IMG/VR virus record: IMGVR_UViG_2711768071_000023
Reading direction: 5' to 3' (one strand)
DNA length: 16,387 bases
DNA from: a virus
Taxonomy: Duplodnaviria > Heunggongvirae > Uroviricota > Caudoviricetes
The notes beneath the pieces were generated by a model that saw nothing but the letters and a program-made list of their open reading frames with translations, ran no database searches and was not told where the DNA came from. Of the stretch, positions 2,101 to 16,387 are shown piece by piece (positions within the stretch are counted from its first letter, which is position 1; each line of letters opens with the position of its first letter). A program made the translations under genes and the position numbers.

Positions 2101-2387
2101 CGCAACCGCTCCGGCTTCTTCCAGTGGTAAGTAATTTTTTCTTTCTCCTGGAACATCTCCACGCGGCGACGATATGACAACAACTCCAGAACTCTGGTGC
2201 GTATATTGCGTATATCCACGCCGTTAAGCTCGATACCGTCACGGCGCATCACCTCAGCCACCACACGCGCGTAATTTTCGGCTATCACGCTGTCCGGCTG
2301 CGTGGCCTCCTGTTTGCCTGCTTCCTGGCTGATTCCGGTAACGCGGCGGATTATTTTTAGTAGTTCGGTTTCGCTCATTCTCGTCAT
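2094..2387 (-). CDS. Hypothetical small basic protein (97 aa), last gene of the packaging operon
   Basis: ATG at 2387 overlaps the terL stop as ATGA (translational coupling). Arg/Lys-rich C-terminus. No family recognised. Confidence 0.6.
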   Translation of the reverse strand: MTRMSETELLKIIRRVTGISQEAGKQEATQPDSVIAENYARVVAEVMRRDGIELNGVDIRNIRTRVLELLSYRRRVEMFQEKEKITYHWKKPERLRR

Positions 2388-4045
2388 ACCCCATCAAACG
2401 CCGCAAGCCGCTCTTTGTGGCTGTCGCTCATATCAAATGCAAATTCCTCATGCTCTGCCTGGAATGTGCCAAACGCCATCAGCGCCGCAACGCTCGGGTC
2501 TATCTTGTTGGATGATTTTTTCTTGTTCGGCTTGATATTGGCGTTCGCGTCACTCTGCATCACAACATTACTCATTGACCAGGCCAGCACCGGATCGCCA
2601 CGATGCACAATCACCTTCCGGTTAACAAAAACTTCGAACGATTTCGCCGCCGGACTGAAACGAAGGTATGTTTGCGGGAACGGCTCCACCTCAAATCCTG
2701 CCCCCTGTAGCTGCGTCCTCAGGTGCGTGGCGTTCCATGTATCGAAGCCCACCAGCCTGATATTGAAATTCTCTGCATCCGCCATGATGTCATCACGGAT
2801 ACGGTCATAATCAATGCAGTCACCCGGTGTTGTGCGTATCCAGCCCGCCTTTACCCACTGGCGATAGATGGCGCGGTTTTTATTGGCGGGGTTCTGTAGC
2901 TGAAATTCCGGCAGATAGTGACGGGAAACCAGCATAATCTTTTTACCGACCGGAAAGGCATAGCACACGCTGGAAATATCGCTGGTTGATGATAAGTCCA
3001 GCCCCGCGTAGCACTCCTGCCCGTATAAATCCGCCTCCGCGAACGTTCCGGCGCACTCCGCCCATGCACCGTTACCCATCCACGGCGTAGCCCCCTGACA
3101 CCAGATATTGAATCGCTTGGTGAGCATTTCCACCCACTGCGACGGAATACCCCGCGCTTTCTGGATGGTTGAGGCCAGTTTTTCACGATCGACGGAAACA
3201 TCGATATTGGGATTCGCCTTTATCCACATCGCCGGATCGTCAACCTCGCTTTCATCATCCAGCTCGTAAATCAGCACGAACATGGATTCGTTCACCTCTT
3301 CACCATCCAGTATCTGGCAGCAATAGTCATAGTGTTGTTTACAGGCTGAAACAACGTTGCTCCCCGATGTGGTGATGGCAAATAACAGCCCCTCCGGACG
3401 CGCCCCCATTCCCAGTTCAAGCGCGGAATAAACCCCGTTGTCAGGGTGCAGGTGATATTCATCCACAATGGCAAGACTCGGGTTTGTACCTTCAATGGTT
3501 GCCGCTTTTGCTGCCAGTGGCTTTAACAGGCTGTTGGTTTTCGGGTGTATCACCTTGTGTGCCTGAATATTTACCCGCTTTCGTAACGGTCGGGATAAAA
3601 GGCACATCTGACGCGCATCATCAAACACGATCCGCGCCTGATCACGACTCACGGCGGCGGTGTAAATATCCTGCTGCCCGTTTTCCATAACCAGAAACCA
3701 GTTAGCCAGGATAGCGGCGACCGTGGATTTGGCATTTTTTCGCGGCACTTCAATGAATGCGCTGGTGTATTTGCGCCGTCCGGTGGCCTTAACCTTAAAG
3801 CCCAGGATGCACGCAAAGGCGAACTGCTGCCACGGCTCCAGCTCAATGGGGCTACCGCGCATTGCGCCTTTTACGTGCGGACACACCCTGGAAAAGGCAA
3901 TAAACCGCTCCACGACCTCCGGATCGAACGTGTAAAGGGGGTTTTCAAGGTCAGAAAAATACCGTTTAACGGCCTGTTTCAGTCGTTTACAGGCCGTAAT
4001 TTTGCCGTTTTTTACGCCTTCTGCGTACTCATGCCAGGCGGTCAA
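2384..4045 (-). CDS. terL: Phage terminase large subunit (553 aa)
   Basis: Long ORF whose translation has terminase ATPase and nuclease domain character. Lies directly downstream of terS with a 17-nt overlap. The ORF-track start at 4045 is a TTG codon, so the exact start is uncertain. Confidence 0.88.
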   Translation of the reverse strand: MTAWHEYAEGVKNGKITACKRLKQAVKRYFSDLENPLYTFDPEVVERFIAFSRVCPHVKGAMRGSPIELEPWQQFAFACILGFKVKATGRRKYTSAFIEVPRKNAKSTVAAILANWFLVMENGQQDIYTAAVSRDQARIVFDDARQMCLLSRPLRKRVNIQAHKVIHPKTNSLLKPLAAKAATIEGTNPSLAIVDEYHLHPDNGVYSALELGMGARPEGLLFAITTSGSNVVSACKQHYDYCCQILDGEEVNESMFVLIYELDDESEVDDPAMWIKANPNIDVSVDREKLASTIQKARGIPSQWVEMLTKRFNIWCQGATPWMGNGAWAECAGTFAEADLYGQECYAGLDLSSTSDISSVCYAFPVGKKIMLVSRHYLPEFQLQNPANKNRAIYRQWVKAGWIRTTPGDCIDYDRIRDDIMADAENFNIRLVGFDTWNATHLRTQLQGAGFEVEPFPQTYLRFSPAAKSFEVFVNRKVIVHRGDPVLAWSMSNVVMQSDANANIKPNKKKSSNKIDPSVAALMAFGTFQAEHEEFAFDMSDSHKERLAAFDGV

Positions 4046-4385
4046 GCTCGTCCTCTTCCTCTGTTTCCGGTGGATTTCTGCGGCGACTTACCGGGTCAAA
4101 ACCCAGCAAAGAAGCCATTTTGATCATTATTCTTTCAGCGTCAGCCTTTGCGCTCAGGGCGGGGTTTCTGCTCTCGCTGCCCTGACTGTTAACAATGCTG
4201 AACCCGCGCGTGGCAAGGTCTTCGACGGCTTTGCGGTATATGGAGTAGTTAACACAATACAGCTCCAGATTGCTCCAGTCGGCGGGGGTAAGGTCTTCCC
4301 GTCCGGAAAGCTGGCGCGATTTTTCCTTCCACTGCCTGACCGCGATTTCATCCAGGTAAGCGGGGGCTTTTGGTGGTCTTGCCAT
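4029..4385 (-). CDS. terS: Phage terminase small subunit, P27 family (118 aa)
   Basis: Internal ATG at 4385 gives MARPPKAPAYLDE... with the conserved P27-family pattern (W..L...G.LT.AD...LE.YC..Y, C-terminal GF.P.SRRR). The 47 upstream codons of the track ORF look non-coding. Confidence 0.85.
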   Translation of the reverse strand: MARPPKAPAYLDEIAVRQWKEKSRQLSGREDLTPADWSNLELYCVNYSIYRKAVEDLATRGFSIVNSQGSESRNPALSAKADAERIMIKMASLLGFDPVSRRRNPPETEEEDELDRLA

Positions 4386-4673
4386 GTTCTTTTTTCGCCC
4401 AATTATTTTCAAAAAAATTCCCGTGCACAAAAATTTGAGGAGGCGGTCGGTGTCCGGCAGGGACGGTTTCGTCCTGAAAACCACCCCCACCCCCTCTGAC
4501 GGCCTCACCAGCGATTGCGAAAACATTCCATGACCTCGCGGTCACGGTCGGTTAATTGCTTCGCTGTGGTGCGTTCTGTGCGCCCTGTCCTGTTGGCTTT
4601 GTGCCCTGTCTCCTGTGTCTTCCATAAGTCACGCTGCCTTATCAGTCCACGTATCAGCCTGGTTTGCTCCTGT
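4386..4673. other. Candidate cos / terminase-recognition region between HNH and terS
   Basis: 288-bp gap in an otherwise overlapping operon. Contains a GC-rich run CCACCCCCACCCCC (4481-4494), short hairpin 4458-4476, and direct repeats TGTGCGCCCTGTC / TGTGCCCTGTC (4577-4589, 4600-4610). HNH-cos-terS is the usual arrangement in HK97-like cos phages. Confidence 0.35.
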
Positions 4674-5114
4674 TCAGTCATCATCGCCATACATCCAGTC
4701 GTTACGGTGTGCTGCCCGTTCTTCCTGCTCGCGATACATGCCCGCCTTACGGTTCGCTTTCGTGGCTGGATCTTCCCGTGTCGTCTTACGGTTGTGGCAC
4801 GTCTGGCACAATGCCTGGTGGTTCCACTCAGGCCAGAAGAGAACATCACCGCCGCCATTGATGGGGATGATGTGATCCACCACAAGAGCTGGCGTATAAA
4901 TCCCCTTAGCCAGACAACGCACGCATAACGGGTTTTTGCTCAGGTACAGGGCGCGGTATTTGTCCCACTGTCGGGAATACCCGCGCGCGCGGCGGTGTCC
5001 CCGTCTGGCATCCTCTGCACGCCATACAGCCCGTCTGTGCTCTTCACACTTGCCGGACTTCACGCGCTTATTACAGCCCGGCTCAGTGCATCGCCTTAAT
5101 GGTTGCCACGGCAT
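4674..5114 (-). CDS. HNH endonuclease, packaging-associated (146 aa)
   Basis: Cys-rich N-terminus (CTEPGCNKRVKSGKCEEH) and HNH core (VVDHIIPINGGGD ... NHQALCQTCHNRKT). ATG at 5114 overlaps the connector stop by 1 nt. Preceded by SD GGGGGTG. Confidence 0.85.
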   Translation of the reverse strand: MPWQPLRRCTEPGCNKRVKSGKCEEHRRAVWRAEDARRGHRRARGYSRQWDKYRALYLSKNPLCVRCLAKGIYTPALVVDHIIPINGGGDVLFWPEWNHQALCQTCHNRKTTREDPATKANRKAGMYREQEERAAHRNDWMYGDDD

Positions 5115-5416
5115 CAGTACACCCCCACATCACGATAAACCGACCAGAGCGCAGAAATAGCCATAGGCAGTTCAGACTGCTCCACTGGTGAAACTGCTTC
5201 CCTGTTCTCGTACAGGAAAGCGATGTACATCAGGCAACCAACACGCATTGCCGGGGTAAATTCCAGCCCGTCTTCAAAACGTTTCCCGATATGCTTCTGG
5301 CAGGCTTCCAGCGCCGCATCGGTATACATTTTCAGAAGTTCGCCTTCACCGGATAAATCATCATCAAGTCGAAGATGTGCCCTGACTTCATCAGGTGTAA
5401 TTCTGGCTTCACTCAT
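5114..5416 (-). CDS. gp6-like head-tail connector / DNA-packaging protein (100 aa)
   Basis: Internal ATG at 5416 with strong SD AAGGGAG. Small acidic protein with the pattern typical of gp6-like head-tail connectors. Overlaps the portal stop by 8 nt. Confidence 0.65.
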   Translation of the reverse strand: MSEARITPDEVRAHLRLDDDLSGEGELLKMYTDAALEACQKHIGKRFEDGLEFTPAMRVGCLMYIAFLYENREAVSPVEQSELPMAISALWSVYRDVGVY

Positions 5417-6623
5417 CTTTTCTCCCTTTAATTTCCACAGTCTGTTTCCATGCCTGGCTGAACTCATCACCACCTTCACGCGGCGGCATACCCTCGCGTT
5501 CGCGAGCTTCGTTCGGATTCATGATCCCGCTCTTAATCCCTTTCTCATACGTGGCATAACGTTCGGTGGGTGTGGCGCGCAGTAAATCGGCTGAATCAAA
5601 CTCAACCAGATAACGGGTACCAGGTACGGGAGAAGTCACCAGCAAAGCGGCCTTGATTTGCTGTTCGAAGTTCGCCAGCCACGGGCGCATTGTCATGGTC
5701 AGAAATGCGCGGCTCGCCTCACTGAAATTGCTGTAGGTGCTGTTGCTGTATTCCTGAAGAAAAATCGGCGACACGTTGAACATCCTGGCGATGTCTTCAA
5801 TGGAGAAGCGACGGGAGGCCAGCCATTCCGCATCCTGGTTACTCATCCCCAGCTGCCTGTAATCCATGCCCCCTTCAAGGATTGGCGTTTTTCCGGCATT
5901 TTTCGCCCCCTTGTAGCGTTCCAGTGCGTCTAATGCCTGTTTACCTTTCACGCCGTCCAGCCATTCACCTGACGTGATAATCCCTGCCGCCATCATGCCA
6001 TCTTTCATAATGCTGGCTCCGTGACGCTGTTGAGCAAGGCCAAGCCCCAGCGCCTCACGGCAAATCGTGACGGGGGAACGCCCCAGAAAGCCATCATCCG
6101 AGGCATAGCGGAGATGCAGAACTTCTTCCTGTAAATACGTGCGCACCGTTCCTGTACAGGGTTCGGTGATGGTATAGCGGTATTTGTGTGTGCCTGTGCG
6201 TTCCGGTACAACACACCCCGGCGCATAAGGATGAAGTGATTTTGGCTGCCCGTCCCGCCCCCACTCAATAACCGCATAGGCGTTACCGTTCAGCAGGCAG
6301 TGACGCATCATTGTGCGTTTAAACTGGTAAGGTGTCAGGCACGAATTAGGCTGCTCATTCAGCAGAATATCTACCGGGTGACTGTCCAGCCATTCCCGCG
6401 CCTCTCTGCCCTTATCATTGCGTACCAGATACAGGTAACACGGCATCGTGGCCACCGCCTCAGCGATGACAGAAACCGCGTTCATCACAGCAGGCAATGA
6501 TTCAGCCGTCCCGGCAGAAACATATTCTCCGGATCCGGTATTTGGTACACCAGACAACGCCAGAAAATCATCAATGGACAGGTTACGCAGATCGCTTTTT
6601 TTACGACTAAAAGGCCACCACAT
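5409..6623 (-). CDS. Phage portal protein, HK97-like (404 aa)
   Basis: Internal ATG at 6623 (MWWPFSRKKSDL...). Size and sequence character typical of HK97-family portals. Lies between protease and connector. Confidence 0.88.
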   Translation of the reverse strand: MWWPFSRKKSDLRNLSIDDFLALSGVPNTGSGEYVSAGTAESLPAVMNAVSVIAEAVATMPCYLYLVRNDKGREAREWLDSHPVDILLNEQPNSCLTPYQFKRTMMRHCLLNGNAYAVIEWGRDGQPKSLHPYAPGCVVPERTGTHKYRYTITEPCTGTVRTYLQEEVLHLRYASDDGFLGRSPVTICREALGLGLAQQRHGASIMKDGMMAAGIITSGEWLDGVKGKQALDALERYKGAKNAGKTPILEGGMDYRQLGMSNQDAEWLASRRFSIEDIARMFNVSPIFLQEYSNSTYSNFSEASRAFLTMTMRPWLANFEQQIKAALLVTSPVPGTRYLVEFDSADLLRATPTERYATYEKGIKSGIMNPNEAREREGMPPREGGDEFSQAWKQTVEIKGRKDE

Positions 6624-6624
6624 A

Positions 6625-7185
6625 TCACAACCCCGCCAGTTCAGCCCAGCGATGACGATTATTTCCTGCCGGGCGTAATTCAGGGTACTGTGCAAACAAC
6701 GAACGGTGGGCAATCTCCACGCCGGATTCGGGATAAGCAGGCATCGATGTTATCGTGATTTCACGGAGTTCTGCTGCGGTTACAGTACGCAGATACGGTT
6801 TTTGCGCGATATTCCACTCCTCGCATAATGCGCGAAAGCCAAAGCTCATTCCTGTAATATCGCCACGTTCCACCAGCGTAAGCACATCTTTTCCAAGCTG
6901 GGTATTTGGCGGTGTCAGTTCAAAACGTAGCCCGGTGTTATCCTCAGTCAGTACCAGTGAGCCGGATTTGGTACGCCCCAGCAGTTGGGTATAGTCATGC
7001 TCATACAGACAGCGCACATCATTACCTGCCGCCAGATAGTCAGCAAAAGCCCCCGGCGTGAACTGTTCGCGAAACTCGTCCCAGATAATTTCTGAAAGGC
7101 TGTTCCAGCGAACGGCATAACCCACCAGTTTTTTATCGCTGGCGGTCAGTTCAGATGTACGGATTTCAAAATCGGTGTTTTTCAT
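6625..7185 (-). CDS. Prohead protease, HK97 family (186 aa)
   Basis: Internal ATG at 7185 (MKNTDFEIRTSE...) with SD GGAG. Translation resembles HK97-type prohead proteases (GYAVRWN..., ...GMSFGF...). Stop lies immediately upstream of the portal start. Confidence 0.85.
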   Translation of the reverse strand: MKNTDFEIRTSELTASDKKLVGYAVRWNSLSEIIWDEFREQFTPGAFADYLAAGNDVRCLYEHDYTQLLGRTKSGSLVLTEDNTGLRFELTPPNTQLGKDVLTLVERGDITGMSFGFRALCEEWNIAQKPYLRTVTAAELREITITSMPAYPESGVEIAHRSLFAQYPELRPAGNNRHRWAELAGL

Positions 7186-7234
7186 CGGTGTACTCCATAA
7201 AGCTGAAAAAGGAGGCCGAAGCCCCCTTTGCTCA

Positions 7235-8380
7235 TTACTTGCCAGCCTGAATTTCCAGAATCTTGATGGCGTTCGAATCCACCACACCACCGCCCAGATA
7301 TTTCTGGGTATAGATGTTAATGAATCCAGGCTCGCTGAAATCCGGACGGGTACGCGTACCGGTTTTATGGTCAACGATGAAATAACCGCGCTTAAAGTCA
7401 CCGACTGCAATCACACCGTCCGGCATAAATTCCAGATATTCAACCGGAAGCCCCAGCAGAGAATCAGGATCACCAGCCTGTAAACGATCGCGCCAGATGT
7501 AATCACCAGTGGCATTTTTCAGTTTTTGTGCGGAGGCGGCTGTATTTGAGTTCATCACCCATACAGCTTTTTTGCGGTACTTATTGCGCAGCGTAAATTT
7601 CAGGTCAATCAGCATATCGGCGCTGAGACTGCCAGTCACTTTTTTCGTCTGGAGCGTACCGAAAGGACGGGTTTTGTCATTATCCGTAGTGCGCGGGAAA
7701 GTCAGGAAACCTTTGGCTTTTTTCTCGCCATCACCGGAAACCAGATCCGTTTCTTCGGTATCAACGAAAGTGTCGCCAATTTCAGAAGATAACCAGCCCA
7801 TAATATCGACTTCGGAAAAATCGATAATTTCCTGAGTGGTTTTCGGGTAAGCGTAGATCGGATACAGGCGGATACTGACTTCATTCAGTTTTGGGGTTGC
7901 CGTCTGGTTACGTGCCGCACCTTCTTCGCCGTGTCCCACGACCGCACCCCCGGCAGAAACCAGTTGCTTAAATTCATTACTGTGAATGGTTTTAACAGTA
8001 CAGATTTTACGCATCACCGACTCATCAGAAAGCTGACGCATAATTTCTCTGTTCAGTTCCGGGATAACCGTATAACCACCATCAGCCGGGACACTGCCGG
8101 ACAGGTTGCGGGTTTCCCCGGTCAGAATGTAAGAGCGTAGTTCGTCTTTGGTGATTTTCTCTTCGACGGAAACACCTGGCTGGTTACGTTCTTCATCCGC
8201 AACAGCTTCAAGACGGGAGATTTCTGTGTCGAGGGAATCGGCTTTTGCACGCAGTTCATCAAACTGTTTGCCTTCGTCATCGTTCAGGCTGCGGTTTTCA
8301 CTGTCGGCTTTTTCCAGCAGGGATCGCATCTGGTTTTTCAGGGCGGTTTTTTGCTGGCGGAGTTCGATTAATTTCTTCAT
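7235..8380 (-). CDS. Major capsid protein, HK97 fold with N-terminal delta domain (381 aa)
   Basis: ATG at 8380. First ~100 residues are a coiled-coil-like scaffold segment (LRQQKTALKNQMRSLLEKA... LDTEISRLEAV) followed by an HK97-type capsid body. Confidence 0.9.
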   Translation of the reverse strand: MKKLIELRQQKTALKNQMRSLLEKADSENRSLNDDEGKQFDELRAKADSLDTEISRLEAVADEERNQPGVSVEEKITKDELRSYILTGETRNLSGSVPADGGYTVIPELNREIMRQLSDESVMRKICTVKTIHSNEFKQLVSAGGAVVGHGEEGAARNQTATPKLNEVSIRLYPIYAYPKTTQEIIDFSEVDIMGWLSSEIGDTFVDTEETDLVSGDGEKKAKGFLTFPRTTDNDKTRPFGTLQTKKVTGSLSADMLIDLKFTLRNKYRKKAVWVMNSNTAASAQKLKNATGDYIWRDRLQAGDPDSLLGLPVEYLEFMPDGVIAVGDFKRGYFIVDHKTGTRTRPDFSEPGFINIYTQKYLGGGVVDSNAIKILEIQAGK

Positions 8381-8573
8381 GAAGGTTTTCTCGTATTGGT
8401 TAAGATTCAGGACGTGAAACCAACACGGAGGGAGCGCCGCCCGACACTCTCGGCATCTCGCAGATCAACCCGGCATCGCGCAGGGGGTCAGGCGGCATTG
8501 TGGCGGCTCACGTCTGAGTGCCACACGCCAACATATACATAAAAATCAGTATGTAAACATCAGCCAGAATCAC

Positions 8574-8602
8574 CGAACAACCTGGAACAACCACGAACAA
8601 AT
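8574..8602 (-). promoter_or_regulatory. Three 10-bp-phased TTGTTC repeats upstream of the capsid operon
   Basis: Plus strand reads cGAACAAcc tgGAACAAcc acGAACAAat, i.e. TTGTTC x3 on the coding (minus) strand at exact 10-bp spacing. Sits just downstream of the 8615-8644 terminator and about 190 bp upstream of the capsid ATG. Confidence 0.45.
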
Positions 8603-8614
8603 AATTTACAAAAC

Positions 8615-8644
8615 CTGAAAAAAGGCCCGGAAAAAATCCGGGCC
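8615..8644 (-). terminator. Intrinsic terminator after the replication/accessory operon
   Basis: Perfect 8-bp stem GGCCCGGA / TCCGGGCC (8624-8631, 8637-8644) with a 5-nt loop, followed on the minus strand by TTTTTTC. Lies 10 bp past the stop of the 8654-8902 ORF. Confidence 0.7.
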
Positions 8645-8653
8645 TTTATCGCT

Positions 8654-8902
8654 TTATTGTTTCACTGGCTCCCGCATTCTGCGTCTTATTTTCCACAAAT
8701 ATTCGATCATCGCTTCCACCTGCTCACGGTTGGTTGCGAAAATTTCCCCGGTCAGTGAGCTACGCAGAAAATCATGATGATCCACAAAAAATAACGCATC
8801 GGAAGAAAGCAACCGACGATATTTTTTTGCTGTCGTGGTTTCCAGATCATCAAAACCATGAAGCTTTTTATGTTGCTGAACTTCTTCAAATGTCACTGGC
8901 AT
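8654..8902 (-). CDS. Hypothetical protein (82 aa)
   Basis: ATG at 8902 with strong SD AAGGGGGAT. Overlaps the stop of the ProQ/FinO-like gene by 10 nt. No family recognised. Confidence 0.5.
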   Translation of the reverse strand: MPVTFEEVQQHKKLHGFDDLETTTAKKYRRLLSSDALFFVDHHDFLRSSLTGEIFATNREQVEAMIEYLWKIRRRMREPVKQ

Positions 8903-9423
8903 GTATCCCCCTTTGCTGCCCGGCGCTGGCGCTTGTGCTTCTCATTCAGCACCATCAGCCGTGTTTCTGCCTCCTGCTGTTCCTGTGGTGTCACTTCCCC
9001 ACATGGCTGGCCTTTCAGATCGTAACGTGCGCCACCAGCTATCAGGGCGCGGTAATAGCGCGGAGACTGCGCATAGGATGCCAGCGTCGCACGTAATACC
9101 CCCGGCCCGAATGCCAGCCCCCTGACGGCGATATCCTGCATCAGGTCGTCGAATATCCCCACCTTAAGCGGCTTCGGTGCTTTATGGCTGAATAAGTCAG
9201 GCCACATCTCAGTGAGGCGGTTAACGCGTCGGCGGTTTTTGCGCTGCCTTTTGGTCATATGCTGCCACGGTGTCGCCCCTGTGGGCTTCTGCTGTGCGTT
9301 CTGATTGCCGGGTATCACTTTATGCGCCGATGTGGTTTTATCCTGCTCTTGCGCCGCCTGCGTCGTTTTCTGCGGCGTGCCGTAAATGCCTTTCGGCTTC
9401 CGGTTAATGGTCAGCGTTGTCAT
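8893..9423 (-). CDS. ProQ/FinO-domain RNA-binding protein (176 aa)
   Basis: C-terminal two-thirds aligns by eye with the ProQ N-terminal FinO-like domain (PLKVGIFDDL ... LRATLASYAQSPRYYRALIAGGARYDLKGQPCGEVT vs ProQ PLKIGIFQDL ... [35 protein letters not shown]). SD GGGGAAGG precedes the ATG at 9423. Confidence 0.8.
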   Translation of the reverse strand: MTTLTINRKPKGIYGTPQKTTQAAQEQDKTTSAHKVIPGNQNAQQKPTGATPWQHMTKRQRKNRRRVNRLTEMWPDLFSHKAPKPLKVGIFDDLMQDIAVRGLAFGPGVLRATLASYAQSPRYYRALIAGGARYDLKGQPCGEVTPQEQQEAETRLMVLNEKHKRQRRAAKGDTCQ

Positions 9424-9459
9424 GCCTTCCCCTGTAATTACTCTGTTCGCTGTTGTGAA

Positions 9460-9885
9460 TTAAAACGGTATGTTATCCCCGTACGGGTCATCGTGCTGGC
9501 TTGTCTGTTGTTTTGCCCTGTTCAGTGCGTCAGTGGCCTGGCCCTGTTGACCTTTTTTGCCGCCCGGTCGCGCCGTTCGCGCACTGATTACGCTGTCTGC
9601 AATAACCTGCCAGCCCTGCCGCGTTTCCCCGTTCTGGCCTGTCCACTGGCTCACCTGCATGTTACCCGCCACGCTCACCAGTTCGCCTTTGTGGTGTTTT
9701 GCCAGTGCGTCGGCCTGTCTGCCAAACGCCAGGACAGATAACCACATCGTCGCCGTTCCGTCATCTGCCTGGCTGCACGGCAGGGGAACCGCCATACTCG
9801 CCATCGCCATTTGTGTCCCTTTGCTGGTGGTCTTTAACTGCGGGTCAGCCACCAGCCGCCCGTAAGCCGCTATCTGTGCTGTCAT
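9460..9885 (-). CDS. ssb: Single-stranded DNA-binding protein (141 aa)
   Basis: OB-fold pattern comparable to bacterial SSB (GRLVADPQLK..., WLSVLAFGRQADALAKHHKGELVSVAGNMQVSQWTGQNGETR) and an acidic C-terminal tip ...DDPYGDNIPF resembling the SSB DDDIPF tail. ATGA overlap with the upstream ORF. Confidence 0.75.
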   Translation of the reverse strand: MTAQIAAYGRLVADPQLKTTSKGTQMAMASMAVPLPCSQADDGTATMWLSVLAFGRQADALAKHHKGELVSVAGNMQVSQWTGQNGETRQGWQVIADSVISARTARPGGKKGQQGQATDALNRAKQQTSQHDDPYGDNIPF

Positions 9886-10127
9886 GCTGTCTGCTCTCCG
9901 GTTTTAACGTTGATGGTTGTCACCTGTTCCGCTTCGGCAATCTCCCGTTCTGTCAGCGTGGCAAAGTTTGCTGCCGCCGTGGTCATGAATGCGCTTATCA
10001 GTTCGGGATGTGCTTTTGCGTACCCTTCTCCCGCGTTGCGGTCGATGATTTTTATCGCCACCCTCAGCCAGTGTTCTGTCAAATCAAGGGCGTGAGATTG
10101 TGGTTTTTTTGCGTGCTTCGTTGTCAC
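9882..10127 (-). CDS. Hypothetical protein (81 aa), GTG start
   Basis: Track ORF starts at a GTG (10127) preceded by SD GAGGT. Translationally coupled to ssb. No family recognised. Confidence 0.45.
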   Translation of the reverse strand: MTTKHAKKPQSHALDLTEHWLRVAIKIIDRNAGEGYAKAHPELISAFMTTAAANFATLTEREIAEAEQVTTINVKTGEQTA

Positions 10128-10178
10128 AGGCTTTACCTCACAGCAATAAAATAAAATTTTTGCATTTTAACCCTTCAC

Positions 10179-10401
10179 CTGTTCACCTTTTGAGATTTTC
10201 CCTTTTTATTCATAATGTTAAGGGGTGAACAGTTTCACAAAAACTATTCACCAACTGTTCACCACTGTTCACCCTTAAAGCTCAATAAATAATCAAAAAG
10301 GTGAACAGTGAATAGTTTGGTGAACAGTTCACAAATAACTGTTCACCCTATAATGTACTGATATAAAAGATATTTATAACAGGGTGAACAGTGGTGAACA
10401 G
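10179..10401. repeat. Iteron cluster, candidate replication origin
   Basis: Nine perfect copies of GGTGAACAG in both orientations (GGTGAACAG at 10224, 10300, 10319, 10383, 10393; CTGTTCACC at 10179, 10255, 10265, 10339) plus degenerate copies, several pairs at 10-bp phasing. An AT-rich stretch (10350-10380) is embedded. Lies immediately 3' of the primase-helicase gene. Confidence 0.75.
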
Positions 10402-10414
10402 TTATTCCATAAGT

Positions 10415-12229
10415 TTAATTTTTGCTGTCGTCATTTGTGACCGATGCACATGATGGCATACAGTCTTCTGAATCCTCTGTCAGTGTCACATTTGAACGCA
10501 AACCGTGCTTCGTTTTCCGTTTTATATACTCCCTGCCATATTCCGCCATTGCCCCCGGCATATCTTTACCGAAGCGCGTCAGTGTTACAGGTTTACCGAA
10601 TCCGTGTGCCCTCATATATGCCAGATAGGCGTGATAAAGATACCTGCGCGGACTGAACGGAATAATTTCGGCATTACCCACTAACAGACCATCACACATT
10701 ACCGACGACATGAGATAGCCACAGAAGTCCACCAGCGAATCGCCCTCGCGTTTTATCACCAGAGCTTCTTCTGATTTCTGCTGCTCATACAGCAGGCGTT
10801 TAGCTTCGTCCTGGTCAGAAAAACGAGTAAGCAGATGGCGAATCACAACCGCCAGCTCTCCTTCTATTTTTTCTGCCAGCATGGGGTCGCGCTCGTTCTC
10901 CGGTACAACCTCCGAAAAATTGAATATCACCCGACGACGTGAGATCCCCCCGCTGCGGTCACTGAATGACATGGCGTTATTGTTCACCGCCAGCACGACC
11001 GCCTGAATGCGTGTTGAGTAGGGGGCTTTATGCTTCGGGTCGATTGCCACCTTGTCACCGCCTGTAATGGCCTTAATTCCTGCGCCATCACCAGCGTAGC
11101 GGGTCATATCCGGCATGATAATCAGCGAAAAGCCAACCACTAACGCGCGTTCCCTTGCATCTTCCAGCGCCTTCATGCTTGCCGATACTGTGTTGGCCTT
11201 ACCCGCCAGCATAGTGCAAATCTCCGCCATCACGCTTTTACCACTTCCCCCTGGACCTGTTACCTCAATGAATAACTGCCAGTCGTACCGGTTCGCCAGC
11301 ACCATGAATAATGCAGCCAGCACGCGATCCGTCTTGCGGTCATTCTCTGCCACCGAGCAGCGTAACCACTTCCAGAAATTCGGCGCATGTGTTGCCAGCG
11401 TTTCCCCCTCTGCTGGTGGGCTGAAAGGTAATTCACTGGCAATTAACAACCAGTCGTTTTTGTTATGCTCCCGAAAATTACCTGTTCTGGTATCAAATAC
11501 CCCGTTACTGAATCCAATCAGGTTACGGGCTGTATTCCCCATTACAGGCAAACTTAACTTCATGGTATCGACCGCCGATTTAATGGCGTTCTGCGAATAG
11601 CTGATCTCCGCATCAATGAAAATCTGCGCCATAGCACGCTGTAACTCTTTATCCTGAATCGGCTCCCATACAACGCCGTTGTAATGGTGAACAGTGTCAG
11701 AGTCGGCATGAATCGCCAGTTCACCGCCATAATGTGCCAGGAGAACTTCGCCGCGCTGGCTTGCTCCCATCTGGTTAAGCGCCAGTGGTGCGGCGCTGTC
11801 TTCTGTTTTTTTCTTAACAGGAAGCTGAATCACCAGACCATCAGAAAGATTCTGGCGCTCACGGGCCAGATATTCGCGCCAGTTCTGCACCTCCTGACCG
11901 TGCATACCCTCAGGATAAAAATTTGCATCCTGTACGCCTGCCGCCGCCAGCTTCTGACCAATCGCCTTTATCATTACTGGCGCAAGATATCCGGCCCTGA
12001 ATATGCGCACGGATTTTCTGCCTTCCGGCACAATTTGCAGCTTATCCAGTTCGGATAACTGCTGCTCCCCAAGCCACACAGGAGGCTCATTATCTCCGGC
12101 CATACGCGCGTCATGTTCCTGCCATTGTTTTGCGTGTGACCAGGCATCACTACCCGCAAAAATAATGACTTCTGTTTCTTTGTGTTTTATGCCGCGTGAC
12201 TGCTGTTTTACGTTCGGTGCCAGTTTCAT
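10415..12229 (-). CDS. Replication initiator primase-helicase, P4-alpha/D5-like (604 aa)
   Basis: Walker A motif GPGGSGKS and downstream helicase-like region in the C-terminal half. Strong SD AGGGGGT. Position next to the iteron origin matches a pri-rep gene. Confidence 0.85.
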   Translation of the reverse strand: MKLAPNVKQQSRGIKHKETEVIIFAGSDAWSHAKQWQEHDARMAGDNEPPVWLGEQQLSELDKLQIVPEGRKSVRIFRAGYLAPVMIKAIGQKLAAAGVQDANFYPEGMHGQEVQNWREYLARERQNLSDGLVIQLPVKKKTEDSAAPLALNQMGASQRGEVLLAHYGGELAIHADSDTVHHYNGVVWEPIQDKELQRAMAQIFIDAEISYSQNAIKSAVDTMKLSLPVMGNTARNLIGFSNGVFDTRTGNFREHNKNDWLLIASELPFSPPAEGETLATHAPNFWKWLRCSVAENDRKTDRVLAALFMVLANRYDWQLFIEVTGPGGSGKSVMAEICTMLAGKANTVSASMKALEDARERALVVGFSLIIMPDMTRYAGDGAGIKAITGGDKVAIDPKHKAPYSTRIQAVVLAVNNNAMSFSDRSGGISRRRVIFNFSEVVPENERDPMLAEKIEGELAVVIRHLLTRFSDQDEAKRLLYEQQKSEEALVIKREGDSLVDFCGYLMSSVMCDGLLVGNAEIIPFSPRRYLYHAYLAYMRAHGFGKPVTLTRFGKDMPGAMAEYGREYIKRKTKHGLRSNVTLTEDSEDCMPSCASVTNDDSKN

Positions 12230-12519: not shown

Positions 12520-12738
12520 TTACTCCAGAGGCAGCTTTTTAGCGGCGAGCTCAATATCAGATGTCAGAGAAACCTGTGTATTTGCCAGGTCTAACAACAA
12601 AGAAATAAGAATTTCTTCTCTGCTATCGGATTTATCGGTGCTAAGGCTGTTCATCCACATATTGACGACTTCCCTGATTTTTTTCGCAGAGTGCAGGGCT
12701 TCAAATGCCAGGTCTTCAATATCATGTTTATTTCGCAT
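12520..12738 (-). CDS. Hypothetical small acidic protein (72 aa)
   Basis: Internal ATG at 12738 with SD GGGGG. Overlaps the upstream gene stop by 11 nt. Confidence 0.45.
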   Translation of the reverse strand: MRNKHDIEDLAFEALHSAKKIREVVNMWMNSLSTDKSDSREEILISLLLDLANTQVSLTSDIELAAKKLPLE

Positions 12739-12940
12739 AATCGCCCCCGCGTAGCTGGTCTGCACTAACACCCGATTTAGTGAGCATTTCAGAAAATCCC
12801 GCAAGAGTGCTGATAAATTCGTTTTCCATTAAACGGCACTGACATTTAACCCGGCCTTTTTCCAGATACACCAGTACGCGCCCCGTATAATCTGACGGCA
12901 CATTCAGCACTACAGGTAAGTGCGATTCATGATTATGCAT
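12728..12940 (-). CDS. Small protein, paralog B of a tandem pair (70 aa)
   Basis: SD AGGGGGTGA. Shares a motif with the adjacent 69-aa protein (TGRVLVYLEKGRVKC vs TGQLLVNVDKGRVVC). Confidence 0.55.
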   Translation of the reverse strand: MHNHESHLPVVLNVPSDYTGRVLVYLEKGRVKCQCRLMENEFISTLAGFSEMLTKSGVSADQLRGGDYAK

Positions 12941-13142
12941 GTCTCACCCCCTGAATATTCGCATTAATCATTCCGGCACGTTCTGCGAGTTCCTGTAATG
13001 ATTCCCTTGTTGCGACAATGGCTTCATCTGGCAGGTGGTAATTACACACCACGCGACCTTTATCCACATTGACCAGTAGCTGCCCGGTAAATTTCTCACG
13101 AAACTGAACGCGGTTAAGGTCGGTAAGTGACAGGTTAATCAT
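12933..13142 (-). CDS. Small protein, paralog A of a tandem pair (69 aa)
   Basis: SD AGGGGG. Paralogous to 12728-12940. 8-nt overlaps on both sides. Confidence 0.55.
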   Translation of the reverse strand: MINLSLTDLNRVQFREKFTGQLLVNVDKGRVVCNYHLPDEAIVATRESLQELAERAGMINANIQGVRHA

Positions 13143-13338
13143 GGTGTTCCCCCTGGCGAATACGGGCAGCGAATACCATCACGCAGCCATCAGGAGATTG
13201 CTGACGCGCTTCCTGTTCGCTGGTGGCCTCAATGGTAATCACGCGCGGTTGTGCCGTGCTCAGGGCGATAAAACGCCAGATGTATTTATTCAGGTTGTGC
13301 GAGTCCCGCCCTTGCGGGTGTGTGGTATGATTTCTCAT
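13135..13338 (-). CDS. Icd-like small protein (67 aa), first gene of the leftward early operon
   Basis: In-frame ATG at 13338 with SD GAGGT inside the 473-codon track ORF. Translation MRNHTTHPQGR...VITIEATSEQEARQQSPDGCVMVFAARIRQ resembles the Icd-like proteins of P4-type prophages as I recall them. Family assignment is from memory only. Confidence 0.5.
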   Translation of the reverse strand: MRNHTTHPQGRDSHNLNKYIWRFIALSTAQPRVITIEATSEQEARQQSPDGCVMVFAARIRQGEHHD

Positions 13339-13446
13339 AGCTACCTCGATACTCTCGTTATCGTTGGTGGTTAGAAGCCCCGTTACTGCTCCAACAGTGC
13401 GGGGCTTCGTCGTTTCAATTGCTGAATTGCATGTATCAGCACTTGT

Positions 13447-13500
13447 GGTATTCACATTACATTTAGGTGAATACCATTTCAAGTCTTTTTTGGTATTCAC
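13447..13500. promoter_or_regulatory. Operator-like repeats in the divergent control region
   Basis: Perfect inverted repeat GGTATTCAC-N11-GTGAATACC (13447-13475) plus a third direct copy TGGTATTCAC (13491-13500). Lies between the minus-strand Icd-like start (13338) and the plus-strand regulator start (13544). Confidence 0.5.
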
Positions 13501-13543
13501 TTTTGTATTACACTGCATCCCGTTATTAATGGGAGGTGCAAAC

Positions 13544-13849
13544 ATGTCCAGGAGTTCTGTTAACAATAAGTCACAGCAACTGAATGCCAGATTTCCACAT
13601 GAAGTAGTGAGTGGCATTGAGGCATCCCTACAGCCAGGGGAAACTAAAGCGAATTTTATAGTTACGGCTGTACGCGGTGAGATCGCCCGGCGCCAGGCAG
13701 AAGGAAGTGGAGAAAATCCCCTGGTTTCTTCGCTCGATGCACTGGCGCAGGTGGAAAAACTCGGAATCAAAGCCGCCGAGGAGATCGGGCAGCTCGTCAC
13801 TGTCGCACGTGAAGAACTCCAGCGCCGCAAGACCAAAGAACCAGAGTAA
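13544..13849 (+). CDS. Ribbon-helix-helix (Arc/MetJ-type) DNA-binding protein, candidate island repressor (101 aa)
   Basis: ATG at 13544 preceded by GGGAGGTG at 5-nt spacing. N-terminus QQLNARFPHEVVSGIEAS...ANFIVTAVRGEIARRQ fits the RHH beta-strand plus two-helix pattern. One of only two credible plus-strand genes inside the element. Confidence 0.6.
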   Translation: MSRSSVNNKSQQLNARFPHEVVSGIEASLQPGETKANFIVTAVRGEIARRQAEGSGENPLVSSLDALAQVEKLGIKAAEEIGQLVTVAREELQRRKTKEPE

Positions 13850-13906
13850 TCACCATCAGCGCCGTGGTGTAAGGTATTACGGCGCATTGCTATGCAGGAC
13901 AACACA

Positions 13907-14080
13907 ATGACCGATAAAGAATTGACCAAAACATTATCACCGGCACGGAAAAGACGGCGCAGAAAGATAGAGCATGAATCAGAAAGATTCGCGCCATGTG
14001 CTTTTGCCCTTGAGCAATTCCTTAAAGAGTACAGGGAAAAGCGCTCATTGCAGGTATGGCAACGAACTGAACCAGACTGA
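13907..14080 (+). CDS. Possible small basic protein (57 aa)
   Basis: ATG at 13907 (MTDKELTK...) in the same transcriptional direction as the RHH gene. Weak SD. No family recognised. Confidence 0.3.
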   Translation: MTDKELTKTLSPARKRRRRKIEHESERFAPCAFALEQFLKEYREKRSLQVWQRTEPD

Positions 14081-14256
14081 TTGCATTGCCCACCAGCCGC
14101 AAATGTGGCATTGTTGGCAATGCTCATGCGTTGGGGATAACGTGTAGCTTGTGTCGAGGGGCCACCGTAGCGGGTGGCCTTTGTTTTGCCCGTTATTCGG
14201 CAATTGTGGCGCTTCTCCACATGGTTGATATAATCCCACTGCTCAGATTCATTTTT

Positions 14257-14556
14257 TGCGCAGTAGGTTAATTGTTCACAAAGGCGCTCCGGCAACGGGG
14301 CGCTTTTTGTTTTTATTAGTTTGTAGAAACCTGACTCAGAGATAATGCTCATATTCTGATTGCCGTCAGGGGTGTAAGTTAAATTTACTCCCTTTTTATC
14401 ATCAAACATCTGCAACGCTCTGGCGTTAACAATATTGGTTTCACTCCCGCCAGTAAGGCCGGAAATAACCGGAATAATTTCGGCAAAATTTTGCAGATTC
14501 TGTTTTTCAGGACGAACGAAGCCCCGCCCTTGTTCGGGAGAATATCCAGTATTCAT
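14257..14556 (-). other. Possible coding segment: N-terminal ~100 codons of the 473-codon ORF, 3' end unresolved
   Basis: ATG at 14556, 52 bp downstream of alpA. Residues ~60-90 (TPDGNQNMSIISESGFYKLIKTKSAP) resemble the core of Bro-N-type domains. The frame has no stop until 13135 and runs antisense through the RHH gene and the 14284-14314 terminator. Confidence 0.3.
14284..14314 (+). terminator. Intrinsic terminator on the plus strand
   Basis: Stem GCGCTCCG / CGGGGCGC (14284-14291, 14296-14303; 7 Watson-Crick pairs plus 1 GU) with GCAA tetraloop, followed by TTTTTGTTTTT (14304-14314). Confidence 0.6.
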
Positions 14557-14608
14557 GGTTAGATCTCTGTATTAGTGGATGGGTGGCGGCTGTGTGCCGC
14601 CAGCCTGA

Positions 14609-14797
14609 TTAGTGAACTGCCTCGCAGCTGTCCTTCCATGCCAGAACTTCGGATAAAGACCAGCCAACGGAACGACCGCCCAGCTTACGCCGTGATGGGA
14701 ATTGTCCGGCTTTTTCCAGGCGGTACCGACATGAGCGGCTCAGGCCTGTAAGTTGCTGACATTCTTTTTCACGTATAAAGCGATCTGTGCTTAACAC
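14609..14797 (-). CDS. alpA: AlpA-family transcriptional regulator (62 aa), GTG start
   Basis: Translation MLSTDRFIREKECQQLTGLSRSCRYRLEKAGQFPSRRKLGGRSVGWSLSEVLAWK matches the AlpA family HTH pattern. GTG start at 14797 preceded by AAGGGGGAA. Confidence 0.8.
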   Translation of the reverse strand: MLSTDRFIREKECQQLTGLSRSCRYRLEKAGQFPSRRKLGGRSVGWSLSEVLAWKDSCEAVH

Positions 14798-15070
14798 AAT
14801 TCCCCCTTTGTTGTTTCTTAAAGAGTCATTGGGTGGATTATTGGGTTGTGTCGGATTGTGTCAGGGTGTTTGTGGAATGGCAAACACTGGCGGCGGTCGT
14901 TTTACAGAAGCAGGGGGAATGAGAATAAAAACTCTTTTAATTCATTATGATGCAAAGGCATAAAATTTTACTTTTACGCCTTTTTTACATATTTTTAAGA
15001 GTGATTCGCCAGTGTATAAAAAAACAGTACACCTATAAAAATCAAATGGTTATTACGATGGCTGATTTTT

Positions 15071-15130
15071 AACCCGTTGTTCCATTTTGTTCCTTGTTGT
15101 TCGTCGTTGTGTCTCGTTGTTTCACGTTGT
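15071..15130. repeat. Six direct GTTGT repeats at exact 10-bp phasing between int and alpA
   Basis: Consecutive 10-mers aacccGTTGT tccatTTTGT tccttGTTGT tcgtcGTTGT gtctcGTTGT ttcacGTTGT. The same motif family recurs at 14846-14862, 8575-8600 and 1585-1600. Confidence 0.65.
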
Positions 15131-15157
15131 CCGCATCCTGAAAAATCGCAAAAAAAA

Positions 15158-16387
15158 TTATATTTCTCTGGCTATTGGCAATGTGGTTACGTTTTCATGT
15201 GTTCCCGCCAGTATCCCTAACCGCTCCGTCCACATATCCAGCGCGTCACGTTTCGCATCCAGATAACGGGAATGGTTATAGACTCGTTGCATCCCTGGCA
15301 TCTGATGACCTGTAAGCTGCTCCACGACGTGAGGATCCACGCCTAAATCGTTCAGCATCGTTGTAAAGGTGCGCCGGATGTCATGCAGTGACCAGTGAGG
15401 GTGTTTTAGCCTCCTGTGCGCTAATCTGCCGTACTGCGACACGCTTGTTTCCTGTTTCACTTCCCCCAGCAATAAGCCCGTGTGCCTGTTCTGCTCCACC
15501 AGCTGCGTGACGAACGGCAGTATTGCTTCCGGTATGGGCCGGAATATTGCCACCTTCGTTTTGCTGTGTTCTTTCGGCACGGTCCAGAGCATTTCGGTAA
15601 AATCCCACTCGCTGATCTCCGATAACCTCAGTTCTACCGTCCGGCATCCGAAAACAATCAGGAGGCGGATTAGTGCGACGTAGTAAGGGGAAAATATTTT
15701 TTTGTCCAGTGCCTGCAATAATTCGCCAAGTTCTTTGGTGCTTAAGACACGCTCGCTTATATCCGGTTTTTTCCCAACGTCCGCCACACTCATATCATCA
15801 AGAACGTTGCTGATTGCATAGCGCCGCCTCCGGCAGAACTTAAGCGCCTGTTTGCACGTCTGTAGCAAGAATCCGGCAGTAACAGGCGTTCGCTTTGCCA
15901 CCTGGTCAAAACAGGCCAGCCAGTGCCGTAGCTCGCATTTATCCAGCGGCATAGCACCAATGTGCTGTATTACGTGATTATTAAGGCGCTTTTTCAGGGC
16001 GGCATAATCCACGCGGTTTTCCTTTACGTAAGACTCAAGCCAGTAGGTAAGCGCATCGCCAACCGTTACGGGCTTTAACGCTTTCTGTACGGTGTAATTC
16101 ATCTCATGACGTGGATTTTTCCCCTCAGCAAGCCAAGCGCGACACTGTGCCGCTTTTTCCCTGGCAGCTTTCAGACTCAGATCAGGATAATTTCCCAGCT
16201 TAATCCGTTCCGGTCGTGCTCCCCTTCCCGTTCCGGCCCTGTAGGTGAAATACCAGGTTAAAAGGCCGCTGGTTGAATGCCTGACGCTCAGGTTTCCACC
16301 GTCATTAAGAAAGGCTGTTTTTTGGGCGGGTGTGCCGTTGATTTTCCTCAGCTGTGTATCGCTCAGTTTGTTAAGTGCTCTGCTCAT
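15158..16387 (-). CDS. int: Tyrosine integrase, P4 type (409 aa)
   Basis: ATG is the last three bases of the window; stop TAA at 15158-15160. N-terminal arm-binding-type region (LSDTQLRK..., GLLTWYFTYRAG...) and C-terminal catalytic region with HDIRRT and a tyrosine near the C-terminus. Transcribed inward, so its att site lies beyond 16387. Confidence 0.9.
   Translation of the reverse strand: MSRALNKLSDTQLRKINGTPAQKTAFLNDGGNLSVRHSTSGLLTWYFTYRAGTGRGARPERIKLGNYPDLSLKAAREKAAQCRAWLAEGKNPRHEMNYTVQKALKPVTVGDALTYWLESYVKENRVDYAALKKRLNNHVIQHIGAMPLDKCELRHWLACFDQVAKRTPVTAGFLLQTCKQALKFCRRRRYAISNVLDDMSVADVGKKPDISERVLSTKELGELLQALDKKIFSPYYVALIRLLIVFGCRTVELRLSEISEWDFTEMLWTVPKEHSKTKVAIFRPIPEAILPFVTQLVEQNRHTGLLLGEVKQETSVSQYGRLAHRRLKHPHWSLHDIRRTFTTMLNDLGVDPHVVEQLTGHQMPGMQRVYNHSRYLDAKRDALDMWTERLGILAGTHENVTTLPIAREI

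Follow-up and report, generated by a model that had tools for sequence, protein, structure and literature searches.

A long open frame after alpA in a satellite element, its likeness to the eta/kil genes of P4 and the presumed immunity cassette that it crosses antisense

According to those passages of PMC10111431 that deal with P4 and cite Forti et al. 1999, eta is a gene of the Bro network, translationally coupled to an alpA homolog, within which lie an internal promoter as well as CI and seqA, and Kil is a truncated form of Eta; in the same passages, translation of eta prevents termination, so that transcription from the upstream promoter reads through (PMC10111431, citing Forti et al. 1999). 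A 'Bro zone' following alpA in Gram-negative phage-inducible chromosomal islands (PICIs) is also described there (PMC10111431). Here we analyze a stretch of 16,387 nucleotides (nt) from the IMG/VR virus record IMGVR_UViG_2711768071_000023, hereafter the window, which carries an element that, judged from its genes, is a capsid-forming PICI (cfPICI), and in which an open reading frame (ORF) of 473 codons follows alpA on the minus strand. Our best reading of this ORF, and one that we regard as fairly probable, is that it is the eta/kil-type leader gene of the cfPICI, lies in its Bro zone and has been kept open for the uninterrupted passage of ribosomes.

Two further systems are relevant as background. 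The immI operon of phage P1 (c4 RNA, icd, ant) combines a small Icd protein with an antirepressor-type gene, and translation of an upstream ORF is needed there for continued transcription. In lysis/lysogeny switches with convergent transcription, such as pR/pL of coliphage 186, the repressor gene and its promoter are crossed in antisense by the activating transcript, which could silence the gene by transcriptional interference.

The features of the window that concern the ORF itself are the following (aa, amino acids):

13135..14556, minus strand: eta-like ORF of 473 codons with an ATG start, open from stop to stop over 13138-14571
13135..13338, minus strand: nested in-frame Icd/Kil-like ORF of 67 aa, the counterpart of P4 kil (65 aa)
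14257..14556, minus strand: N-terminal segment of the ORF, aa 1-100, a truncated Bro-N remnant that in relatives is swapped, complete or absent
14609..14797, minus strand: alpA, encoding a Phage_AlpA regulator (PF05930, 65.8 bits), directly upstream of the long ORF and in the same operon

Conservation of the open frame

An original prediction, made from the letters of the window alone, had pointed to the 1422 nt of open minus frame as exceeding chance expectation, and both its extent (13135-14556) and its improbability were borne out. The protein database yielded 1740 matches to the ORF, many of them of 385-540 aa, at 60-85% identity and with full coverage, which together form a mosaic of different middle modules. 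Because this list is biased, in that it holds only ORFs that had been called, the loci were fetched by the Icd anchor alone, and the resulting anchor-only sample comprised about 160 loci with the 67-aa Icd segment as sole anchor (a scan of species-representative genomes yielded 4 loci only). In the anchor-only sample the Icd frame was open upstream for a median of ~290 codons, 135 of 152 loci having no fewer than 78 open codons there, with 297 codons in Klebsiella, 279 in E. ruysiae and 193 in Tenebrionibacter. One frame had 0 stops per 700 nt in 41 of the 59 sequence clusters, the other frames averaging 12.7 and 16.2 stops, and shuffling the 700-nt upstream regions never gave a stop-free frame (0/11,800).

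Among 92 distinct alpA-to-icd intervals, most of the ~70 distinct sequences of 451-1270 nt are open from end to end, with the first ATG located 8-57 nt past the alpA stop. In a set of 97 distinct intervals between alpA and icd, of 451-2100 nt, same-strand ORFs defined by a start codon jointly cover a median of 96%, and 90 of the intervals leave no untranslated gap longer than 80 nt. The comparison of homologous islands for stops and length variation that had been proposed with the original prediction thus found the frame open in most loci, with spacer lengths mostly kept modulo 3, as detailed below. At intervals longer than 1370 nt (for example in loci L007, L078 and L087) an extra same-strand gene of ~0.8 kb, Bro-N/Ant-like, stands between alpA and the long ORF, which in these loci begins after that gene and not after alpA.

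Some modules are out of frame with icd: the L039 type (14 loci), L055 and the Edwardsiella locus L004. Each of them carries one long same-strand ORF of 239-401 codons in another frame, and this ORF stops 16-20 nt ahead of the icd ATG or overlaps the icd frame. The L039-type module, with an ORF of 278-401 codons, occurs with three different alpA types. Judged from their sequences, these exceptions fit a model in which continuous translatability is what is maintained. A '35-codon' group was considered as a 1-nt frameshift of the L002 type and rejected as such; it carries a different operator module.

The embedded cassette and the middle of the ORF

Between its ends, the ORF runs through a group of features, the genes and terminators among which are on the plus strand:

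13544..13849, plus strand: ylcI-like gene (YlcI/YnfO family, 101 aa; NF041551, 60.8 bits against a cutoff of 30; phrog_6522, 1.9e-45)
13892..14080, plus strand: orf62, a gene for a small basic protein (phrog_21027, 1.6e-15)
13446..13500, no strand assigned: three operator-like 10-mers in the ylcI-icd spacer, TGGTATTCAC at 13446-13455, GTGAATACCA (inverted) at 13467-13476 and TGGTATTCAC at 13491-13500
14160..14187, plus strand: intrinsic terminator T1, GGCCACC-GTAGCG-GGTGGCC-TTTGTTTT, inside the minus ORF, read from the sequence
14280..14307, plus strand: intrinsic terminator T2 of the ylcI-orf62 unit, inside the minus ORF at aa about 83-93, found by terminator scan

The antisense genes are real. 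The embedded gene is a member of the YlcI/YnfO family by the curated cutoff of NF041551, has homologs of ~101 aa across Enterobacterales and is preceded by a Shine-Dalgarno (SD) sequence, GGGAGG, at 13531-13536. The original prediction had described a ribbon-helix-helix (RHH) gene with a strong SD and a small ORF opposite the long frame; both genes and the SD are supported (NF041551, phrog_6522, phrog_21027), but the RHH label could not be confirmed, as the protein gave a weak Pfam match to PSK_trans_fac (E = 0.008, 17.5 bits against 28.3) and its monomer was modeled by AlphaFold as helical, with a predicted local distance difference test score (pLDDT) of 74 and no match in Foldseek (PDB) or in a PDB-profile search. 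YlcI also found no match among phages by tblastn. The plus-strand terminator and operator repeats that had been noted across the ORF are present: of the two terminators only T2 was listed by the consensus terminator scan, T1 was read in addition to it and the 10-mers number three. T1 and T2 stand in tandem after orf62. No U-tract follows T2 on the minus strand, and aligned relatives show a variant of its hairpin with compensatory changes in the stem.

Across 23 spacer clusters, every YlcI allele is paired with its own 10-mer, mostly in three copies located about 165, 120 and 98 nt upstream of the icd ATG. These allele-specific triple 10-mers indirectly support DNA binding by YlcI, and on the same comparative grounds the embedded cassette looks like an immunity module, with YlcI as its presumed immunity repressor. 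In E. coli K-12 (DLP12 prophage; L168, locus 4252-4446) ylcI is a stand-alone gene and the opposite strand is open for only 90 codons, so that the long ORF belongs to the satellite context and not to the YlcI family. This K-12 control is underpowered, covering 64 codons. Within them there is no stop in the wobble-shared antisense frame (about 2 would be expected), which may be a relic of the cassette or chance.

That the long minus ORF is the only real gene of the region, ylcI and orf62 being spurious, is barely conceivable. The omission of both genes by the annotation pipeline PGAP in L002 (NZ_CP024240) would agree with it, but the NF041551 match (61 bits), the PHROG match at 1.9e-45 and the ~101-aa homologs all speak for ylcI, as do a codon-position pattern that fits the plus frame, the strong SD, the two downstream terminators, the allele-specific operators and the solitary ylcI of K-12 with its 90 open codons opposite. 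The original prediction would have yielded to homologs with a conserved full-length protein of ~470 aa and non-conserved plus-strand ORFs; the full-length frame is indeed conserved, but the plus-strand ORFs are conserved as well.

Analysis of synonymous sites then pointed to selection on the minus frame. The third codon positions of ylcI coincide with those of the minus ORF, and because of this coincidence a minus-frame stop requires, on the plus strand, either a Tyr codon preceded by NNY or a His/Gln codon preceded by NNT. His/Gln codons after NNT amounted to 3/381 in the ylcI alleles, with ~74 expected; in orf62 (44 distinct alleles) they amounted to 0/200, and Tyr codons after NNY to 0/41. 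Counted by phase, TTA, CTA and TCA numbered 213, 288 and 4 in ylcI, and 167, 62 and 1 in orf62. A conservative test limited to 8 diverged ylcI alleles (<65% mutual identity) gave 0/38 against 8.3 expected (P = 8e-5), and the background of the same antisense frame in 12 other genes of the element was 3.5 stops per 100 codons. To compare diverged ylcI and operator alleles, protein-guided codon alignments and module clustering were used, segment-wise blastn having recovered too few of these alleles.

The operator spacer carries no plus-strand gene. Among 18 independent modules, 15 had no stop in the icd frame, the other frames having 5.4 and 5.6 stops, and the length of the spacer was 1 mod 3 in 16 of the 18 (187 to 211 nt; P = 1.7e-6). 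At T1, a variant stem (GGCGACC/GGTCGCC) still pairs, and a +1 nt insertion in the loop is accompanied by a -13 nt deletion, so that the net change of -12 nt keeps the minus frame. The region thus behaves, as far as sequence comparison can tell, as a dual-coding pair in which both frames are conserved and each is under selection, with amino-acid constraint on the plus frame and selection against stops only on the minus frame. On this comparative evidence the 473-codon frame is real and conserved, and is neither chance nor shadow.

The view that a Bro-N fragment and icd were joined by an accidental stop-free frame antisense to real genes, annotation pipelines then extending icd to the longest ORF, had been one of the options of the original prediction and is very improbable. 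Annotation is certainly inconsistent, PGAP calling a 161-aa coding sequence that overlaps ylcI in one relative (L001, NZ_CP059907) and a 470-aa 'Icd-like' coding sequence in another (L002); the plus-strand genes are real; and the middle has a composition unlike that of proteins and no predicted fold. Against this stand the openness of the frame in most anchor-only loci and in no fewer than 18 spacer modules that are not homologous to one another, the compensated indels, the phase-specific depletion of stops at synonymous sites, the 0/11,800 shuffles and the background of 3.5 stops per 100 codons, which together refute a shadow. Nor is the pattern likely to come from a few clones, as 59 clusters and 18-23 distinct immunity modules are involved. 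A second option, a mosaic produced by recombination, is right in that the mosaicism is real, but leaves the openness of the frame unexplained. The third, one large ORF with plus-strand genes embedded antisense, came closest to the evidence, except that translatability and not the sequence of the middle looks selected. The real arrangement is hidden whether the locus is annotated as one 'Icd-like protein' of 470 aa or as ylcI with a short icd.

What the middle is selected for was examined by frame. Its composition is dominated by Ser, Thr, Ala, Leu, Arg and Cys, close to the Ser/Cys/Thr/Arg richness remarked on before. Where ylcI overlaps the long ORF, the three codon positions of YlcI (1/2/3) had diversities of 0.36/0.27/0.52, and this is a plus-strand signature because plus position 2 is minus position 1; the BLOSUM score per site was 2.44 for YlcI against 1.84 for the long ORF. 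The terminator spacer 14081-14256 showed no codon periodicity, and too few sequences aligned to the operator spacer for the periodicity test. The scoring of both strands suggested with the original prediction thus located constraint in the plus frame of the ylcI overlap and found no periodicity in 14081-14256. AlphaFold with a 32-sequence alignment gave pLDDT of 62-78 at aa about 423-468 and of 20-30 at residues 1-422. Taking these results together, the middle, as far as substitution patterns and models can tell, is not selected as a protein, the amino-acid constraint in the overlap lying on YlcI, and the ORF looks selected for its translatability and not for the amino-acid sequence of its middle. 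The idea that it is not an ordinary gene is upheld. The locus offers a natural example of selection for openness alone, which constrains synonymous sites on the opposite strand and the length of a regulatory spacer.

The ends of the ORF, its operon and the proposed read-through

The Bro-N-like nature assigned to 14257-14556 was partly supported. PHROG Ant families match the N-terminus at up to 7e-5, the Ant of phage S1249 matches aa 41-97 (tblastn), and the relatives P0072 (54 bits) and P0101 carry a full Bro-N that aligns to the N-terminus of the window ORF. The window ORF itself stays below the Pfam gathering threshold for the whole domain (PF02498, 14.1 bits against a cutoff of 25.6, profile positions 37-85 only), and lacks the first half of the domain relative to P0072. 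Because the aligned relatives carry the full domain, we interpret this end as a truncated Bro-N remnant; its pLDDT in AlphaFold is below 30. The first ATG of the long ORF sits 52 nt past the alpA stop. Between the two there is an inverted repeat, a GGCGGC/GCCGCC hairpin at 14581-14605, with no U-tract on the minus strand.

At the other end, the earlier description of an Icd-like segment of 67 aa with its own SD and ATG is supported. Residues 425-468 match NCBIfam NF033153 'phage_ICD_like' (66 bits against a cutoff of 25), phrog_1743 is also matched, and the putative nested ATG at 13336-13338, preceded by a GAGG SD at 13344-13347, is kept in all leaders examined. Of 150 representatives of clusters with the NF033153 domain, 132 have it at the C-terminal end, and in 92 of these 132 it is preceded by 120 or more residues. 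Two elements precede the nested start:

13339..13373, minus strand: leader before the icd ATG, nearly invariant including synonymous sites, CTAACCACCAACGATA...ATCGAGGTAGCT, containing the GAGG SD
13374..13408, minus strand: conserved GC-rich hairpin, encoding aa about 383-395 and lying ~35-70 nt upstream of the nested icd start

Each of the 58 distinct leaders has, at positions -35 and -22 relative to the icd ATG, stops in both of the alternative frames, and it is the stop at -22 that terminates the long ORF in the out-of-frame L039-type modules. Within the leader, CGAUA/UAUCG plus CC/GG can pair into a small hairpin in contact with the icd SD. In the GC-rich hairpin, 6 predicted pairs are preserved by two-sided changes across 15 module types. 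An A-run precedes this hairpin in many modules, so that its plus strand resembles an intrinsic terminator pointing at ylcI.

The element has the genes by which a cfPICI is recognized, namely int, alpA, primase, capsid, protease, portal, connector, HNH, TerS and TerL (Pfam, 2384-12229; int, 15158-16387), and no tail genes within the 16-kb window. Their order is int, alpA, the 473-codon ORF, small ORFs, DUF4222, a D5-type primase, single-stranded DNA-binding protein (SSB), ProQ/FinO, capsid, protease, portal, connector, HNH, TerS and TerL. The neighbors most relevant here are:

12933..13142, minus strand: orf69, the next gene, whose start overlaps the ORF stop by 8 nt and which opens a tightly packed chain to the primase
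10415-12229, same strand as the ORF: primase, downstream of the ORF and the small ORFs
15158-16387: int

From the ORF to the primase each gene overlaps or adjoins the next, with junctions of -8, -8, about -11 (with an ATG at 12738), +6 and -4 nt. A gene for an RNA-binding protein with a ProQ/FinO domain (PF04352, 83 bits; 8893-9423, minus strand) lies between those for SSB and capsid, and is intriguing in an element with extensive sense/antisense transcription. Beyond TerL, a 486-codon ORF (1-1461, plus strand) enters from the left edge of the window on the strand opposite to the satellite genes. DNA similar to the element was found in 1748 of 5426 complete E. coli genomes. The EcCIMP1 paper gives no transcript data for the region of the ORF.

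Placing these results into a model requires taking into account that the ORF starts just past alpA and ends in an Icd/Kil-like domain that could also be made alone, as 67 aa, from the nested start, and that between these ends it would be read antisense through the ylcI-like gene, orf62, two terminators and three allele-specific operator repeats. In the model that we propose, selection would keep the middle open for uninterrupted translation and not for its amino-acid sequence. When the alpA promoter fires, ribosomes would trail RNA polymerase over ~1.2 kb of otherwise untranslated, C-rich antisense RNA, and this cover would block premature termination, probably by Rho-dependent polarity, so that icd and the replication genes could be transcribed. 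Polymerase would in this way reach icd and the replication genes whatever the immunity state, and antisense transcription over ylcI would also interfere with the expression of the repressor and dampen it; both this interference and the repressor function of YlcI are what we infer from the arrangement. By analogy with the P4 precedent, it would be translation of the ORF that prevents premature termination. A role for Rho is backed indirectly by the apparent selection for continuous translatability and by the excess of C over G in the minus-strand RNA of the middle (1.10, with peaks of 1.75-2.1, against 0.73-0.95 in sense genes). Only tentatively, with the balance of evidence falling slightly short of favoring it, do we extend this to the general claim that a widespread enterobacterial satellite family keeps an ORF of several hundred codons whose middle is selected only so that ribosomes can traverse it, and that such ribosome-shielded read-through, antisense to repressor gene, terminators and operators, serves to circumvent and silence immunity once the helper-induced alpA promoter becomes active.

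Two other explanations accept the frame as real. The full-length 473-aa polypeptide could be functional, a Bro/Ant-type regulator being tethered through a long disordered linker to an Icd/Kil-like effector, in which case the frame would be open since the ends must be joined. The antisense-ylcI frame is in register with icd in 16 of 18 independent spacer modules, a disordered linker would agree with the low pLDDT, domain swapping is a known trait of Bro-network proteins (PMC10111431), and some relatives have a complete Bro-N (P0072, 54 bits) or ASH (P0070). We nevertheless consider it unlikely, as the L039-type module, in 14 loci and with three alpA types, splits the two ends and still keeps an ORF of 278-401 codons; the ORF of the window has a truncated N-terminal part, and many relatives lack this part or have another in its place, yet the frame still begins right after alpA; the constraint in the overlap lies on YlcI and the terminator spacer has no codon periodicity; and the Bro-N of the window is below threshold and unfolded.

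Alternatively, continuous translation could be selected for a reason other than Rho: translational coupling that delivers ribosomes to icd and the genes beyond it, shielding of the long antisense RNA against RNases, or a polymerase kept moving so that its collision with ylcI transcription silences the latter. The tight overlap of the downstream genes, the frame-catching stops 22-35 nt ahead of the icd ATG, the small invariant hairpin touching the icd SD, and the convergent transcription units with plus-strand terminators within the ORF would all suit one or another of these reasons. Weighed against the good SD that icd has of its own (GAGG) and the direct precedent in the homologous P4 gene, which is one of anti-termination, they appear quite unlikely to be what explains the frame, although they are compatible with the Rho model and not mutually exclusive with it.

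Comparison with P4 and related systems

We checked the P4 sequence directly. In P4 the open eta frame comprises 218 codons and overlaps the ORF88 stop, ORF88 being the alpA homolog; the gene order is ORF88, the eta/'cI' ORF, epsilon and then alpha; and Eta consists of Phage_ASH (aa 22-146, 82 bits) followed by NF033153 (aa 146-193, 73 bits), kil being its last 65 aa. The eta/kil genes and the window ORF share their position directly after an alpA homolog and upstream of the primase operon on the same strand, a C-terminal domain matched by NF033153 and phrog_1743, a short nested in-frame gene (65 aa for kil, 67 aa in the window) and the presence of immunity determinants inside the ORF. A relative of the window ORF, P0070, has a long body, ASH (54 bits) and Icd, like Eta. 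When 50,697 phage records were searched with the ORF by tblastn, P4 was not matched and just an Ant fragment and one satellite-like record came up, and the link to P4 was for this reason made with profiles. These domain matches and the synteny show the 473-codon ORF to be homologous to the nested genes eta and kil of P4 and to occupy the equivalent position; the reading as a whole, with ribosome transit as its explanation, we hold reasonably likely.

Several points weigh against this reading as a whole. The window ORF and P4 Eta gave a pairwise BLAST E-value of only 0.39; the window has no Phage_ASH (no PF10554 match), a Bro-N remnant standing in its place, and no RNA of the CI/C4/isrK type, unlike P4 with its CI RNA and seqA/seqB/seqC, so that homology to Eta rests on the C-terminal domain and synteny. 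In the operator spacer, a sigma-70 promoter scan gave no match and nothing convincing. The long ORF has a weak SD of its own (GAGA ~10 nt upstream), and the alpA stop is 52 nt away. As a proxy for Rho sites the modest C/G bias is only suggestive and does not amount to a prediction of such sites, and we infer translation of the ORF, Rho dependence and the promoters alike. The in-frame fusion with Icd in 16 of 18 modules exceeds what pure ribosome transit needs, and because this fusion is preferred the full-length product may matter too. Uncompensated frameshifts occur in a few single loci (L022, L015, L058, L051, L141 and L103). In the spacer homologous to 14081-14256, an A6 to A7 homopolymer change in L022 and a 1-nt deletion in L015 each break the frame, and could be decay, sequencing errors or slippage.

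The differences from P4 also concern the size and the content of the ORF, which has 199 codons in P4 and 473 in the window. An Rfam scan of 12800-15200 found no RNA of the C4, isrK or P4 CI type at an E-value of 1 or less, with just two sub-threshold chance matches, and P4-style RNA immunity was rejected for the window on this basis. Unlike P4, the immunity cassette of the window would be protein-coding and on the opposite strand, with ~165 codons of antisense dual coding, terminators and operators read in frame.

The P1 immI operon has the reverse gene order from the window, is regulated by an antisense RNA and contains no protein gene embedded antisense; P1 Icd and the domain in the window are linked by family name and not by sequence comparison. 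As for switches of the 186 type, the stretch transcribed antisense is not known to be maintained there as a translated ORF. In the searchable literature we found no description of an antisense protein-coding immunity cassette read in frame by such an ORF. With the Bro zone of Gram-negative PICIs (PMC10111431) the window shares the order of integration, Bro, replication and late genes, and, after alpA, a mosaic gene that swaps domains and carries segments of Bro-N, ASH or Ant. The genes are treated in that paper as domain-swapping proteins, with mention neither of antisense genes nor of selection on an open frame, whereas in the window most of the 'protein' appears unconstrained in sequence.

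If the proposed reading is true, the ORF is among the best comparatively supported long antisense overlapping ORFs in bacteria, with selection showing in synonymous positions of the embedded gene and in the modulo-3 length of the operator region, and it would provide a directly testable system for the translation-dependent shielding of antisense transcripts from Rho. It also suggests how Gram-negative cfPICIs may couple helper-induced expression of alpA to their replication genes while overriding protein-based immunity. The nested eta/kil genes of P4, which the original prediction had not mentioned, are the known precedent; what is new is the protein-repressor cassette that is embedded antisense and read through in frame. 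The eta/kil paradigm of P4 would in this manner be extended from an RNA repressor to an antisense-encoded protein repressor, of which at least 18 exchangeable immunity specificities were seen.

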